A stretch of 48,921 bases of DNA, from the IMG/VR virus record IMGVR_UViG_2778261394_000010. One strand, written 5' to 3'. The position numbers and the translations under genes were made by a program. Numbering within the stretch: position 1 is the first letter of the stretch; every line of letters begins with the position of its first letter. This DNA comes from a virus. Taxonomy: Duplodnaviria > Heunggongvirae > Uroviricota > Caudoviricetes. The notes beneath the pieces were generated by a model. It did not search any database. It was given only the letters and a program-made list of their open reading frames with translations, and was not told the DNA's origin. Positions 37,025 through 45,239 of this stretch are shown piece by piece.

Positions 37025-37777
37025 TTACTCCTTTTTGGGTGCATACACGTTGTTTATCCGTTCAATATGAATAGTTACATCCGGGCTTTCTAAGAATAAG
37101 AAGTCAATCAAATGACCAATGAGAATGCAGGCATCATTAATAGAGGACCTTGTGACTTTAATCCCTCCATGACTGCCGTGATTCCCCAACCACTTTAACG
37201 CCATGAATGCATCTTTATTTGATCCCAGTTTATCTGAATAATTTGTGATTCTTTCATGCGTAGAAAGACGTATTATCTTGCCTTTAACTGTTTTCTCTCT
37301 TGGTACATCAAGACTATCAAGCATCATCTCCAGTATGGTTCTCATGGTGTTCACCGCTGAAGCTGGGTGCGAGGGGATCAGAGCTGATACTTCCGCCAAG
37401 AGATCAGCTATATCTTCAGGGCACTTTTCAGGAAACAGGAATAGAGGAAGTGGTGGATAGAAATACTTAGGACGGAAACCAGAAACATACCAACGCTCCG
37501 TCATTTCGTCATTGAAGCATTCTACAGCAACAACCTGCCCAGACAAAGCAACATTCTCCTGACAGGCTTGGCGGGTACAGCGCAGCACGCAACTGAATAC
37601 TCCTCCCGACATTTCCTCATCAAACCATACTTCATCTCTAAACTGAGTTGTTGCGCTTGAATCAGTTTCTACAAAACTATCAGCGACAATCTCCAGTGTT
37701 TCATTCATACAGTTCGGGCAGCGCCAAGCTGGTGCGTCATTTCGTTTAAACGTGGCATACAGTAATTTAGGATCCAT
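37025..37777 (-). CDS. Hypothetical protein (250 aa), possible DUF4145-like moron in the ren/nin hotspot
   Basis: N-terminal Cys pairs (CPNC…C…C) and a C-terminal WLGNHGSHGG segment; GC composition differs from flanks; family assignment is from memory only. Confidence 0.45.
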   Translation of the reverse strand: MDPKLLYATFKRNDAPAWRCPNCMNETLEIVADSFVETDSSATTQFRDEVWFDEEMSGGVFSCVLRCTRQACQENVALSGQVVAVECFNDEMTERWYVSGFRPKYFYPPLPLFLFPEKCPEDIADLLAEVSALIPSHPASAVNTMRTILEMMLDSLDVPREKTVKGKIIRLSTHERITNYSDKLGSNKDAFMALKWLGNHGSHGGIKVTRSSINDACILIGHLIDFLFLESPDVTIHIERINNVYAPKKE

Positions 37778-40069: not shown

Positions 40070-40615
40070 TCATATTGCCCCCAGCATGGTGGTGACCATC
40101 GCCATCAGTGGACCAGCCAGATCCGGGTCCACACGAAACATCGACACAATGCCTTCACTCATCTCCTTCAGTTTCTGGTGGCGTGGTGCGTTGAGAATGA
40201 CAGCCTGTTTTGCCTCACTGAGTTCCTTTTCCATTTCAGCCAGCCGAGCCATGTAGCTATCCTGCTCAACCAGGTGGCCGCGATATTCCAGCGGTAGTAC
40301 CGCCAGAATTGCCGGGGTCAGTTCACGCACGTTATTTCGGTATTTTTCAGAATCGAATTTGTTATCGAGGAAGCGGAACAGCTTCTGGCGTGCACGACTG
40401 ACATCATCAGGGAAATCGATGGTGCCGCCGCCCTGCTCCCGATACTCATTCACAATGAGTGCGGCAACAACATCCTGATTATCTGCAGCCGACCAGGCGC
40501 GAACGGCATCACGGATTTTTTCGTGGCCTGGCGCCTGTTTTGTTTGAGAACGATTTATCACCGCAGTCGGGCTAAATCCGCTAGTCTGTTGGTATGTAAG
40601 TGGTTGCATAGTCAT
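40070..40615 (-). CDS. Hypothetical protein in the cII position (YdaT-like)
   Basis: 181-aa ORF directly downstream of the cro-like gene and upstream of O; family assignment is from memory only. Confidence 0.45.
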   Translation of the reverse strand: MTMQPLTYQQTSGFSPTAVINRSQTKQAPGHEKIRDAVRAWSAADNQDVVAALIVNEYREQGGGTIDFPDDVSRARQKLFRFLDNKFDSEKYRNNVRELTPAILAVLPLEYRGHLVEQDSYMARLAEMEKELSEAKQAVILNAPRHQKLKEMSEGIVSMFRVDPDLAGPLMAMVTTMLGAI

Positions 40616-40639
40616 TGCCTTATCAGTTAACGCCGCAGT

Positions 40640-40873
40640 TTAGGCGGCAGAATTACTCGCGTTAAACAATGGTGCGAGGTCGGGACGAATATCTGCTGGT
40701 TTAATCTTTCCACCAGTGGCTGAGACAATTTTCATTACATAGCGGGCATCAATTCCGCCACCGTGTAGCCAACGCCAAACTGTGGGTTGGGCTACACCGC
40801 ATAGATCTGCCAGTCGTTTTTGACTACCTGTAATACTGATTGCGAGTTGAATGGTTTGATTTGTCATTATCAA
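40640..40873 (-). CDS. cro: Cro-like HTH repressor (YdaS family)
   Basis: 77 aa; LADLCGVAQPTVWRWLHGGG HTH; divergent from the cI-like gene across an operator region. Confidence 0.7.
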   Translation of the reverse strand: MIMTNQTIQLAISITGSQKRLADLCGVAQPTVWRWLHGGGIDARYVMKIVSATGGKIKPADIRPDLAPLFNASNSAA

Positions 40874-40977
40874 TTCCTATTGGTATTGCAATGAATGAAT
40901 AATAGCAATGCGTATTAACCCAAGCAATAGCAAAACGTGTTTTGACCATCAATACGCAAGCGTATAAATTAAAACTT
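40874..40977. promoter_or_regulatory. OR-like operator / divergent promoter region between cro and cI
   Basis: Repeated operator-like elements sharing a TAGCAAT / CAATACG core (attgcaatg, atagcaatgcgtat, caatagcaaaacg, caatacgcaagcg); the same motif family recurs at OL (43540..43600). Confidence 0.5.
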
Positions 40978-41670
40978 ATGAAAAAAGAAACTCTTGCTGA
41001 TCGCTTAAACCTAGCGATGGAACAATCTGGAATGTCTCAAGGCGCTCTTGCAAAGGCGTCTGGCGTAGCTCAACCCACAATCTGGAGACTGACAAGCGGC
41101 AACGCGCGCGGCTCAACAAAAATTGTTGAAATAGCTAATGCATTGGGTGTTCGAACAGAATGGCTCTCATCAGGCATAGGCCCGATGAGAAATGACGGTC
41201 AACAATCAGGGAAGCCTGCTGTCAGCCATTCCAAATACTTCAAAATTGACGTTCTTGATATAGAAGTCAGTGCCGGGCCGGGTGTAATCAACCGTGAGTT
41301 TGTAGAAGTTCTACGCTCGGTTGAGTACTCGTTTGACGATGCTCGTCACATGTTCGATGGCAGGAAGGCAGAAAATATCCGCATCATTAACGTGCGTGGT
41401 GACAGCATGTCAGGAACGATCGAACCAGGTGATCTGCTGTTCGTTGATATCACGGTTAAATCTTTCGACGGTGATGGTATCTATGCGTTTCTGTACGACG
41501 ACACAGCCCATGTAAAGCGTCTGCAAATGATGAAGGATAAGCTGCTGGTTATCTCTGATAACAAGAGCTACTCACCGTGGGACCCGATCGAGAAAGACGA
41601 GATGAACCGGGTGTTCATCTTCGGTAAGGTTATTGGGAGCATGCCGCAGACGTATAGGAAGCATGGGTAG
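40978..41670 (+). CDS. cI: CI-like repressor (HTH plus S24 LexA-type peptidase domain)
   Basis: N-terminal HTH (LADRLNLAMEQSGMSQGALAKASGVAQPTIWRL) and C-terminal S24 motifs (GDSMSGTIEPGDLLFVD…VKRL); start 40978 preferred over 40942, which overlaps operator repeats. Confidence 0.8.
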   Translation: MKKETLADRLNLAMEQSGMSQGALAKASGVAQPTIWRLTSGNARGSTKIVEIANALGVRTEWLSSGIGPMRNDGQQSGKPAVSHSKYFKIDVLDIEVSAGPGVINREFVEVLRSVEYSFDDARHMFDGRKAENIRIINVRGDSMSGTIEPGDLLFVDITVKSFDGDGIYAFLYDDTAHVKRLQMMKDKLLVISDNKSYSPWDPIEKDEMNRVFIFGKVIGSMPQTYRKHG

Positions 41671-41716
41671 CGGATTAGCTAATCATTATGATGTTGTTCA
41701 AATTTAAGAGGTCCGC

Positions 41717-42565
41717 ATGTCTTCGATTTGGGGAAAAAAGTTGATGACGAAAGAACAAGAGCCAAACACTGATGAAGTGAAACCAGAGCAAGGAAGTTTG
41801 TTTGAATTAGAATTTCATGAATATACACCTTCAAGCTTAGGCACTGCACACCTTTCTGGTTTCGCTATTGCCACTGATGAAATGGAATATGCAGTTAAAA
41901 GCATGCGTTCCACCCCACCTTTTCCTGTACAAAACCCAACTCAAGTACCGGCAGCGGAATGGTTTTGCACAAATTTAGCTGAAAAATGCGGCATCGCTAC
42001 ACCTGTGTGCAAAATTCTCAAGTGTATTGCTAATGGGGAGTATGTTTTTGGCTCTCGCATAGAGTTTTCAGCCTGGAAATCTGGTCTCAATAGTCCTCAA
42101 TGGATAAATTTGCTCTCAAATGCTTCTGAATCCTTAAAGAAGCAACTCTGGGCAATTTATGCATTTGATCAGTTTGTATATAACATTGACAGACACCTCA
42201 ACAACTACTTATACATGGAAAACACCCGAGGCAATGTTATAGTTAAAACATTCGATTTTAGTCTAAGCTCTTTTGTTATAGGCTGGCCACGAAATACCCC
42301 TCATATACTACCAACAGACTCCAGTACAACAACAAACTGGACGATTGCTAAACAATTCATTGGCGACACTGATGATCTGAGAAAGTGCGCATTATCTGTC
42401 CTTGACAAAATTGAAAAAATTGGAGTTGAGACTATATCTGATATACTTAACTCTATGCCTGAAGCATGGATGCCACCAATGCATAAGGAGTATTTTTTGA
42501 AGTGGTGGGACAGCGAGGAGCGAATCGATAGGCTAAATGCCATAAGACTGGAGATAACATCTTGA
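41717..42565 (+). CDS. Kinase-fold protein (HipA/CtkA- or PI3/4-kinase-like catalytic loop), first gene of an immunity-region module
   Basis: 282 aa; catalytic-loop-like YNIDRHLNNYLY (D-R-H-x-N-N) followed by FDFSLSSF; co-transcribed with cI at the lambda rexA position. Confidence 0.5.
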   Translation: MSSIWGKKLMTKEQEPNTDEVKPEQGSLFELEFHEYTPSSLGTAHLSGFAIATDEMEYAVKSMRSTPPFPVQNPTQVPAAEWFCTNLAEKCGIATPVCKILKCIANGEYVFGSRIEFSAWKSGLNSPQWINLLSNASESLKKQLWAIYAFDQFVYNIDRHLNNYLYMENTRGNVIVKTFDFSLSSFVIGWPRNTPHILPTDSSTTTNWTIAKQFIGDTDDLRKCALSVLDKIEKIGVETISDILNSMPEAWMPPMHKEYFLKWWDSEERIDRLNAIRLEITS

Positions 42566-43368
42566 AAACTTTCAAATACAGCTTAATCAGAGTTACACCG
42601 AACTTAGAGAAAGGTGAAACGATTAACGTTGGTTTGATCGTTTACCATGACTCTGACATAGACGTACGTATGCTCAATTCAGTTTCAAAACTTAAAGCGA
42701 TTGACAAAGATCTTACCTTAGATTACTTAGAGGATCTTTCAACCTCGCTTTTTGATTTGTCACAAAAAATCAACAATGCTGAACTTCTTCCTTGTCTTTT
42801 TAAGGGAGCATTATCGTTATCGTCATTTGGCATGTTCACTCTTCAAGCCAACGAAGATTACGAAGCTAAAGTTACTGATCTAATGAATCGGTTAGTAAAC
42901 CCACAAAAACAACCACATAAGCAGTTGAAAAAAAAGGTTTTTTCTGAATTAAAATCCACCTTTATACAACATGGAATTTTCAGTAAGTATTTTGAAGATC
43001 TTTCCCAACATAAAATCGTAGCTAATTATCCAATTAGTAATGAAGAAGGGTTAGTTGCAGATTTTTTGTTAAAAAATGGCAAATACCATCTTACAGAAAC
43101 ATTAGATTTTCGTTCTGAAAATATAAAAAAACAAATGGGTGAAGCTGCGATAAGTGTTTTAACAATTACTAAAGCCTACGAATTATACAATTCAAATATT
43201 GATTCATTTGTAATTTTTGCCGCTGAAACGACAGCACAAGAAAAGTCAGCAAAACAGCAGCTAAATCTACTGGAAAAACACGCTGATAATCTTATCAACG
43301 CATATAGCAAAGAAGACATGCGTTCATATTACGAAAAGATGCTGAATGCTGCCTCTATGTTACAGTAG
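42562..43368 (+). CDS. Hypothetical partner protein, translationally coupled to the kinase-fold gene
   Basis: 268 aa; TTG start overlapping the upstream stop (cTTGA); N-terminus YSLIRVTPNLEKGETINVGLIVY may resemble DUF3037-type proteins (from memory, unverified); AT-rich. Confidence 0.4.
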   Translation: MKTFKYSLIRVTPNLEKGETINVGLIVYHDSDIDVRMLNSVSKLKAIDKDLTLDYLEDLSTSLFDLSQKINNAELLPCLFKGALSLSSFGMFTLQANEDYEAKVTDLMNRLVNPQKQPHKQLKKKVFSELKSTFIQHGIFSKYFEDLSQHKIVANYPISNEEGLVADFLLKNGKYHLTETLDFRSENIKKQMGEAAISVLTITKAYELYNSNIDSFVIFAAETTAQEKSAKQQLNLLEKHADNLINAYSKEDMRSYYEKMLNAASMLQ

Positions 43369-43394
43369 AAAAAACTGACTAATTTAATTAATAA

Positions 43395-43421
43395 CCCGGC
43401 CACCGTGCCGGGTTTTCTTTT
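43395..43421 (+). terminator. Rho-independent terminator ending the cI operon
   Basis: Hairpin cccggc-caccgt-gccggg followed by ttttctttt. Confidence 0.65.
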
Positions 43422-43539
43422 GTCCCCTCCCCTCATCACACACCGCTCAAAAAACCACCACACCACTGCTTCAGTTATCGCTATGCGATGCAAGTCACAA
43501 AATTAATTCTTTTTGCTATCAAACATTTAATATCAAAAC

Positions 43540-43600
43540 ACATCAACCAATAGCAATAAGTATTGATATCACCAATAGCAATAGCTATTATCACCATATC
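43540..43600 (+). promoter_or_regulatory. pL-like promoter with OL operators
   Basis: -35 TTGATA (43564..43569), 17-bp spacer, -10 TATTAT (43587..43592), embedded in repeated caatagcaat operator-like motifs shared with the OR region. Confidence 0.55.
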
Positions 43601-43664
43601 GCAACAACACAACGATACGGCAACCACCTGATTCACCGTTGCGATGACCGCTTAGATCCGCAGC

Positions 43665-44075
43665 TTGAATTTCAGCAGGCTCCGGGGAGTGCGAGGGGTG
43701 AAGCGGACGCGTGAACGTCGGTGTGACCAGCTGAAATCAACACAACACTTTATACCTCAGTCGCTTCAACGAGGCGGCTTAGTTATGACAACCGGCGGCC
43801 ATCCACCGCCTGAATACGCGCAGAAGTCTCTATATGTTCAGCAGCCCAGTTTACGGGCAGGAGTTTTTATGGTTCATCAACATTACGGAACGCAGACCGT
43901 TAATCGCGGCGCGGTCATGCCAGGAATGCTGGTCAAACACAAAGATGGTACCTGGACTGCATCAGCTAATTTACGCGGACGGCTTTATCTGCATCGCGGC
44001 ATCGAGCGCACTTATACCCGTGATTTGCTCGTGGAAGTTTTTCTCGACGGACGCGGTAACGGCCTGAATCACTAA
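43665..44075 (+). CDS. Hypothetical first gene of the pL operon; Arg-rich N-terminal motif if a non-ATG start is used (possible N-like protein)
   Basis: Open frame from 43665 (TTG); GTG at 43698 or ATG at 43780 are alternative starts; the upstream part encodes RLRGVRGVKRTRERR, reminiscent of N-protein arginine-rich motifs. Confidence 0.35.
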   Translation: MNFSRLRGVRGVKRTRERRCDQLKSTQHFIPQSLQRGGLVMTTGGHPPPEYAQKSLYVQQPSLRAGVFMVHQHYGTQTVNRGAVMPGMLVKHKDGTWTASANLRGRLYLHRGIERTYTRDLLVEVFLDGRGNGLNH

Positions 44076-44151
44076 CCCCCCTTTCCTGTTTTCCTAATCA
44101 GCCTGGCATTTCGCGGGCGCTATTTTCACAGCCATTTTCAGGAGTTCAGCC

Positions 44152-44448
44152 ATGAACGCTTATTACATTCAGGATCGTCTTGAGGCTCAGAGCTGGGCGC
44201 GTCACTACCAGCAGATCGCCCGTGAAGAGAAAGAGGCAGAACTGGCAGACGACATGGAAAAAGGCCTGCCCCAGCACCTGTTTGAATCGCTATGCATCGA
44301 TCATTTGCAACGCCACGGGGCCAGCAAAAAAGCCATTACCCGTGCGTTTGATGACGATGTTGAGTTTCAGGAGCGCATGGCAGAACACATCCGGTACATG
44401 GTTGAAACCATTGCTCACCACCAGGTTGATATTGATTCAGAGGTATAA
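44152..44448 (+). CDS. gam: Gam (RecBCD inhibitor), short form
   Basis: 98 aa [56 protein letters not shown]…, lambda GamS. Confidence 0.9.
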
Positions 44449-44453
44449 AACGA

Positions 44454-45239
44454 ATGAGTACAGCACTCGCAACGCTGGCAGGGAAGCTGGCTGAACGTGT
44501 CGGCATGGATTCTGTCGACCCACAGGAACTGATCACCACTCTTCGCCAGACGGCATTTAAAGGCGATGCCAGCGATGCGCAGTTCATCGCATTGCTGATC
44601 GTCGCCAACCAGTACGGCCTTAATCCGTGGACGAAAGAAATTTACGCCTTTCCTGATAAGCAGAACGGCATCGTTCCGGTGGTGGGCGTTGATGGCTGGT
44701 CCCGCATCATCAATGAAAACCAGCAGTTTGATGGCATGGACTTTGAGCAGGACAATGAATCCTGTACATGCCGGATTTACCGCAAGGACCGCAATCATCC
44801 GATCTGCGTTACCGAGTGGATGGATGAATGTCGCCGCGAACCATTCAAAACTCGCGAAGGCAGAGAAATCACGGGGCCGTGGCAGTCGCATCCCAAACGA
44901 ATGTTACGGCATAAAGCCATGATTCAGTGTGCCCGTCTGGCCTTCGGATTTGCTGGTATCTATGACAAGGATGAAGCCGAGCGCATTGTCGAAAATACTG
45001 CATACACTGCAGAACGCCAGCCGGAACGCGACATCACTCCGGTTAACGATGAAACCATGCAGGAGATTAACACTCTGCTGATCGCCCTGGATAAAACATG
45101 GGATGACGACTTATTGCCACTCTGTTCCCAGATATTTCGCCGCGACATTCGTGCATCGTCAGAACTGACACAGGCCGAAGCAGTAAAAGCTCTTGGATTC
45201 CTGAAACAGAAAGCCGCAGAGCAGAAGGTGGCAGCATGA
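44454..45239 (+). CDS. bet: Bet (Red-beta single-strand annealing protein)
   Basis: 261-aa [40 protein letters not shown]…, lambda Bet. Confidence 0.95.

Follow-up and report, generated by a model that had tools for sequence, protein, structure and literature searches.

Between the cI-like repressor gene and the OL/pL region of the viral sequence IMGVR_UViG_2778261394_000010 (Caudoviricetes; 48,921 nucleotides, the whole of which is called the window below) lie two overlapping genes, gene A and gene B, which on sequence comparison are a divergent member of the HipAD (DS-6/PDC-M66) class of defence systems. By analogy with relatives of tested function, the pair is probably a HipAD-type, kinase-dependent anti-phage system carried as cargo and expressed in the lysogen; the detailed steps of its mechanism are less certain. 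Since a sibling phage carries, in the corresponding slot, a system of this kind whose function has already been described and validated, the pair is counted as an additional, highly divergent member of the class, and not as a new system. A first-pass annotation, made from the sequence alone, had proposed a candidate exclusion or abortive-infection system at this place, possibly based on a kinase, and the HipAD architecture, together with the presence of HipA and HipD in the corresponding slot of the sibling phage, supports that proposal by analogy. The same annotation had called the module uncharacterised, a label overtaken by the description of the HipAD/DS-6/PDC-M66 family in 2025-2026.

The gene A kinase and its relationship to HipAD

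Alignment and a predicted structure show the product of gene A to be a compact protein kinase of the HipA/CtkA fold with a complete and invariant catalytic set. It matches Pfam HipA_2 (PF20613) with 28.3 bits (cut-off 27), and Pfam HipA_C with 25.1 bits, under the cut-off of 30.5. The motifs IDRHLNNY (residues 157-164) and FDFS (residues 179-182), from which the first-pass annotation had guessed at a HipA/CtkA-like or PI3/4-kinase-like enzyme, are present, and the catalytic residues K61, E81, D158, N163 and D180 are invariant in an alignment of 27 homologues with identities down to 32%, as are D151, N156, R159 and H160. In the AlphaFold (AF2) model (predicted local distance difference test, pLDDT, 86; predicted template modelling score, pTM, 0.83), K61 ends strand beta-3, E81 lies on the next long helix (the C helix), D158 to N163 form the catalytic loop, and D180 occupies the DFG-like position. 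Comparison of the model with the PDB by Foldseek placed CtkA at the top (E = 1e-7), followed by HipA, HipT, the type II PI4K (PI4KII) and CotH, with ordinary eukaryotic-type kinases matching weakly; together with the HipA_2 match, these relatives bear out the guess. A profile search of PDB chains with gene A gave nothing significant (HipA and HipT at E ~0.9), the weak matches to NleH being noise. Among the PADLOC models, the best for gene A was PDC-M03A (26.8 bits), and PDC-M66A was matched weakly (15.8 bits, E = 1.5e-3). NCBIfam returned nothing meaningful for either protein, and the strong matches of the pair in PHROGs are to families of unassigned function (phrog_3162 and phrog_5137).

The combination of a HipA-like kinase with a DUF3037 protein constitutes the PADLOC candidate system PDC-M66 (PMC12548924). 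A pair of this kind located next to Retron-Sda1 defends on its own; deletion of its kinase abolishes defence and deletion of its DUF3037 gene is toxic (PMC12548924), which identifies the kinase as the toxic effector there. DefensePredictor led to the validation of another such pair, DS-6 (WP_000389051.1 and WP_000210934.1), from Escherichia coli ECOR (PMC13092281). DS-6 no longer defends once a residue predicted to be central to kinase catalysis is mutated (D139A, with the strain and plaque assays in the supplement), and AlphaFold3 predicts a complex of the two proteins (PMC13092281). According to the same source, an independent discovery of DS-6 by Brenes and Laub in 2025 gave the system its new name, HipAD, and the C-terminus of HipD was placed in DUF1829 with a low HHpred probability of 0.78 (PMC13092281).

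The resemblance of the window pair to HipAD extends to architecture, gene order and location: both consist of a short HipA_2-type kinase and, after it, a DUF3037 protein of ~270 residues, the two genes overlap by 4 nucleotides (at 2415-2418 in DS-6), and the arrangement of cI, A, B, terminator and OL/pL is the same in the sibling lambdoid phage PhiR5_1. Profile alignment with hhalign related the gene A family to DS-6A (probability 96.8%, E = 2.9e-10, 172 columns), the counterpart of D158 being D139 of DS-6A, and the gene B family to the DS-6B family over the N-terminal 133 columns (probability 95.9%, E = 5e-9). The window pair likewise shares with PDC-M66 the two-gene cassette of HipA-like kinase and DUF3037 protein, and gene B matches the model PDC-M66B weakly (31.7 bits, E = 2.6e-8, profile positions 1-204 of 281; DS-6B scores 57 bits), whereas the retron that accompanies the pair at Retron-Sda1 is lacking from the window cassette. 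The two lineages are nevertheless far apart: gene A is 21% identical to DS-6A over 117 residues (BLASTP E = 0.014), it has an N-terminal extension of 30 residues that is disordered in the model, and the Prokaryotic Genome Annotation Pipeline (PGAP) labels the gene A product 'hypothetical protein', whereas the kinase of HipAD receives the name 'HipA family kinase'.

With HipBA, HipBST and CtkA, gene A shares the kinase fold and the catalytic loop (Foldseek E = 1e-7 to 1e-5 against CtkA, HipA and HipT), and in the window pair, as in HipBA and HipBST, a toxic kinase is likely to be restrained by its partner. Unlike these systems, however, the pair includes neither an antitoxin of the HipB type with a helix-turn-helix (HTH) domain nor a HipS, no HTH domain having been found by Pfam in gene A or gene B, and the partner gene lies downstream of the kinase gene instead of upstream. 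Gene A is also shorter than HipA (282 versus ~440 residues), from which it differs in not having the large N-terminal subdomain. The missing HTH domain, the downstream partner, the length of 282 residues and the HipA_C score under its cut-off rule out classical HipBA/HipBST membership.

Gene B and the proposed mechanism

The first-pass annotation recognised no catalytic motif in gene B, which has no canonical (D/E)xK triplet; the protein is nonetheless not featureless, since it combines a DUF3037 domain and a nuclease-fold domain with invariant acidic and histidine residues. The match to Pfam DUF3037 (PF11236; 38.5 bits, cut-off 22.6, residues 6-64) recurs in 26 of the 26 gene B family members. 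In the model (pLDDT 86.5), the DUF3037 domain (~1-112) and a C-terminal domain (~125-268) are joined by a disordered linker (115-122), and the C-terminal domain has a restriction-endonuclease-like fold, its Foldseek matches including the inactive nuclease-like domains of ERCC1 and FAAP24. Residues H150, G163, A166, N172, G173, H176, E179 and D182 are invariant in the family, and position 167 carries a conserved acidic residue. A profile search of PDB chains was not significant with the whole of gene B or with the C-terminal domain alone, and the weak Pfam matches to Macro and DUF496 (E = 0.05-0.08) are attributed to chance. A search of 1.84 billion representatives with a profile of the C-terminal domain retrieved 339 clusters, defined at 50% identity. 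Almost without exception the proteins are ~270 residues long and have the domain at ~125-270, so that it is nearly always paired with the N-terminal domain. On all 28 relatives of DS-6B, the hidden Markov model (HMM) of the window-type C-terminal domain scores at most 3 bits.

In the mechanism proposed for the pair, genes A and B would be co-transcribed with cI from pRM in the lysogen, as far as the terminator before OL, and the gene B product would bind the kinase and keep it inactive in the manner of an antitoxin. Infection by another phage would release or activate the kinase, which may then phosphorylate a target essential to the host, or perhaps one belonging to the phage, and the resulting growth arrest would abort the infection and protect the lysogen population. 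The nuclease-like domain of gene B would probably serve as a sensor or a DNA-binding part rather than as the killer. As for possible targets of the kinase, HipA acts on GltX and HipT on TrpS, which makes aminoacyl-tRNA synthetases the substrates to be expected.

Several observations weigh against this interpretation. Gene A clears the HipA_2 cut-off by 1.3 bits only, and its scores of 28 bits on HipA_2 and 16 bits on PDC-M66A compare with 258 and 53 bits for DS-6A. The function is transferred wholly by analogy from relatives that are only ~21% identical, and the interaction of the two proteins, the target and trigger of the kinase, and the co-transcription with cI are all steps that we infer. 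Though they may share a fold, the C-terminal halves of gene B and HipD are unrelated in sequence (hhalign <1%), which implies that the sensing or neutralising part may work differently in the two lineages. Finally, H150, H176, E179 and D182, with the acidic residue at 167, could make the C-terminal domain of gene B catalytic and not regulatory.

The last point bears on a reversal of roles, in which the nuclease-fold domain of gene B would be an effector acting on phage or host nucleic acid, and the kinase a sensor or a switch that activates or restrains it by phosphorylation. The pair would then still serve defence, though not by a HipA-toxin mechanism. The invariant cluster of histidine, glutamate and aspartate residues is what would be expected under such a reversal, which is nevertheless judged decidedly unlikely: no canonical (D/E)xK is present, the structural matches include the inactive ERCC1 and FAAP24, the retron-linked relative becomes toxic upon deletion of DUF3037 and loses defence upon deletion of the kinase (PMC12548924), and a catalytic mutation of the kinase abolishes defence by DS-6 (PMC13092281). 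It is likewise doubtful, though conceivable, that the C-terminal domain, coupled to a protein kinase, works as an active nuclease or senses nucleic acid; in that case the cassette would represent a kinase-nuclease defence with a trigger, a target and a phage range unlike those of the validated HipAD.

The cI-to-OL slot and the layout of the locus

DS-6A itself is encoded in phage PhiR5_1 (tblastn, 100% identity), where the pair is annotated 'HipA toxin' and 'HipD antitoxin' and the gene order is cII, cro, cI, HipA, HipD, kil, gam, bet, exo. Compared with PhiR5_1 by blastn, the window is 95% identical over ren-P-O-cII and 91% identical over the 3' part of cI as far as the stop codon (41669), shows no similarity across 41670-43386, and is 95.7% identical from 43387 onward, just before the stem of the terminator. 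The intervening segments are of nearly equal length (1717 nucleotides in the window, 1724 in PhiR5_1), and the 91-96% identity of the flanks around dissimilar cassettes indicates that the two cassettes are alleles of one locus. GevT/GevA takes the place of these cassettes in PhiR47_2, and PhiR68_2 has there an unannotated overlapping pair encoding 341 and 149 residues (L015 2050-3505), which is probably another defence cassette; with HipAD, GevT/GevA and the PhiR68_2 pair as alternatives, the slot is a defence hotspot of this phage group.

The cI product is 82% identical to that of PhiR5_1, but the HTH region is different. Relative to PhiR5_1, the segment comprising cro, OR and the HTH half of cI (40611-41113) and the OL operator block (43505-43600) have been replaced, while 91-96% identity has been kept in the terminator, in the pL leader and in the half of cI that encodes the S24 domain, so that immunity specificity was exchanged as two separate patches flanking the cassette; the divergence of the OL block is consistent with that of the cI HTH region.

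The slot from cI to OL/pL is the rexAB position of lambda, and the pair resembles RexA and RexB in lying between cI and OL/pL on the same strand, in being presumably co-transcribed with the repressor gene in the lysogen and in its proposed exclusion role as two genes. Rex is reported to act through a membrane ion channel and not through a kinase. No Rex model in PADLOC, Pfam, NCBIfam or PHROGs matched gene A or gene B, and homology to RexAB is ruled out, as there is no relationship of sequence or fold and the genomic position alone is common to both.

Table 1. Features of the immunity region and of nearby genes of interest in the window.
Feature	Position	Strand	Remarks
cI-like repressor (HTH and S24 peptidase)	40942..41670	+	First gene of the presumed pRM transcript
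Gene A, short HipA_2/CtkA-fold Ser/Thr-type protein kinase (predicted)	41717..42565	+	282 residues, ATG start; presumed toxin/effector
Gene B, DUF3037 and restriction-endonuclease-like domain (predicted)	42562..43368	+	268 residues, TTG start; presumed antitoxin/sensor
OR operator region, cro-like gene to cI	40864..40949		AATAGCAAT-type repeats (40901-40949) common to OL
OL operators and pL-like promoter	43546..43597	+	AATAGCAAT-type repeats (43549-43597) match OR
Intrinsic terminator closing the cI-A-B unit	43393..43422	+	G+C-rich hairpin AACCCGGCCACCGTGCCGGGTT followed by T-run TTCTTTTG
Swappable cassette	41671..43386	+	Without DNA similarity to PhiR5_1; both flanks 91-96% identical
Gene at the cII position	40070-40615	-	YdaT-toxin-domain protein (PGAP); cII in the PhiR phage records
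DUF4145-domain gene	~37025-37777	-	L001 1426-2178; between ren and the nin region

The layout at this locus (Table 1) agrees with the first-pass annotation as to the two overlapping open reading frames after cI, on the same strand and with a TTGA overlap, and as to the terminator ahead of OL/pL. The overlap, through which the two genes are translationally coupled, is formed by the TGA stop codon of gene A (42563-42565) and the TTG start codon of gene B (42562-42564). Shine-Dalgarno sequences precede both genes (AAGAGG, 5 nucleotides upstream of the ATG of gene A at 41717, and GGAG, 7 nucleotides upstream of the TTG of gene B). PGAP starts gene A at an in-frame ATG at 41744, giving 273 residues. 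As residues 1-26 vary from one homologue to another and the model shows them as disordered, it is uncertain which of the two codons is the start, although the choice does not matter for function. PGAP also starts cI, labelled as an XRE family regulator / S24 peptidase, at 40978. Prediction of terminators and promoters gave none in the gap of 46 nucleotides between cI and gene A. The hairpin and T-run of the terminator (43393-43414) begin 25 nucleotides past the stop codon of gene B and are invariant in PhiR5_1 and PhiR47_2 in a three-phage alignment. Beyond the terminator, a pL-like promoter of the form TTGATA-17-TATTAT (43563-43591) is predicted, embedded in OL repeats; the repeats shared by OR and OL comprise the direct family D1 and the inverted repeats I4, I10 and I11. 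Downstream of pL on the plus strand are kil, gam, bet and exo. An Rfam scan of 40500-44500 identified no RNA family, a match to mir-7940 (E = 0.097) being noise.

The AT-richness of both genes relative to cI, from which a horizontally acquired cassette had been suspected, is borne out by G+C contents of 40.0% for gene A and 33.5% for gene B, compared with 47.2% for cI and a window average of 49.6%; at third codon positions (GC3), the values are 36%, 29% and 51% for gene A, gene B and cI. E. coli strain A11 has a prophage, next to tRNA-Arg and fimZ, that is identical to the window across this locus.

Other features of the region are recorded here as side observations. No gene for an N-like antiterminator was found between pL and kil (43598-43868); the pL leader (~270 nucleotides) is nearly identical in PhiR5_1 and PhiR47_2, both of which also lack N, and an N_peptide gene is present at this position in the Proteus relatives. 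The gene at the cII position is named differently by PGAP and in the PhiR phage records (Table 1). The DUF4145-domain gene, which adjoins a pseudogenised gene for the theta subunit of DNA polymerase III, may be another cargo or defence gene.

Distribution of the pair and implications

Homologues at E ≤ 1e-3 number 53 for gene A and 44 for gene B, from Klebsiella, Enterobacter, Yokenella, Erwinia, Proteus, Morganella, Providencia, Xenorhabdus, Pectobacterium, Gilliamella, Vibrio, Gallaecimonas and Pokkaliibacter. These homologues indicate that both genes are real. Identity to the window proteins falls in step in the two lists, from the relatives in Klebsiella to those in Vibrio and other distant ones, and in five of the five distinct homologue contexts examined, gene B lies next to gene A with the order and the overlap preserved. 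In lambdoid prophages of Proteus, close homologues of the pair are found between cI and N, followed by three different downstream pL operons; in a Vibrio prophage the pair lies between the replication genes and the integrase gene, which follows it; and elsewhere it adjoins recBCD (Gallaecimonas) or an IS1595 element (a metagenomic contig), or lies near a Bro-N gene (Pokkaliibacter). These five contexts show the pair to be an autonomous mobile cassette that is tied to no single phage position and recurs beside cI. A metagenomic representative of 541 residues (P0339) appears to be a fusion of HipA_2, DUF3037 and the window-type C-terminal domain, which argues for a physical partnership of the gene A and gene B products.

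Of 5426 complete E. coli genomes, 24 carry the window-type cassette, always on the chromosome and at least 99.5% identical, and 284 carry HipAD. No copy of gene A or gene B was found in 50,697 deposited phage genomes by megablast and tblastn, the flanks alone being matched. The protein accessions WP_000846934 and WP_231217097 are named in no paper and in no DefensePredictor supplement, the supplements having been covered in part, so that this absence is not conclusive.

The HipA fold of the kinase, the toxin-antitoxin-like behaviour of relatives in which deletion of DUF3037 is toxic (PMC12548924), and the occurrence of the pair outside prophages, beside recBCD or an insertion sequence (IS) element, are also what might be expected of a plain addiction or persistence module, serving prophage stability or altering the physiology of the host, for instance through HipA-like growth arrest and antibiotic tolerance, without any anti-phage role. 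Such a role on its own is considered highly improbable for the window pair: the related pairs that have been tested defend against phages (PMC12548924, PMC13092281), the slot, at the lambda rexAB position, holds the alternative defence cargoes HipAD and GevTA, and the pair has neither a HipB-like HTH antitoxin nor an autoregulatory operator.

It could also be supposed that the pair is no more than neutral or decaying cargo that at present does nothing in the prophage, and its rarity in E. coli (24 of 5426 genomes) would agree with this, as would the state of a relative of 326 residues (P0022), most similar to the Klebsiella homologue, which is a decayed copy, truncated at the N-terminus and with a catalytic loop reading NIDCH, in which a frameshift fuses A to B and leaves B out of frame. 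In the window, however, both frames are intact in AT-rich sequence, provided with Shine-Dalgarno sequences and coupled; the 24 copies in E. coli are at least 99.5% identical, the catalytic residues are invariant across genera, and the pairing of A with B has been kept from the Enterobacterales to Vibrio and Gallaecimonas. A loss of function in the window pair is thus extremely improbable, and a kinase-dependent defence system of the HipAD type remains the preferred interpretation.

The comparison with PhiR5_1 means that defence cassettes are swapped as whole units in the cI-to-OL slot, with exact boundaries at the stop codon of cI and at the terminator, and the window cassette adds to this slot a second, very divergent lineage of the HipA-like/DUF3037 type. 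Standard annotation misses the cassette, the kinase being left as a 'hypothetical protein' by PGAP and the PADLOC matches being weak. Comparison with HipAD could separate the parts that are essential (the kinase core and DUF3037) from those that determine specificity, for which the variable C-terminal domain is a candidate, and could reveal if the nuclease-fold domain detects the incoming phage. The existence of two distant versions in isogenic phage backgrounds also offers a convenient comparison for the targets of the kinases.

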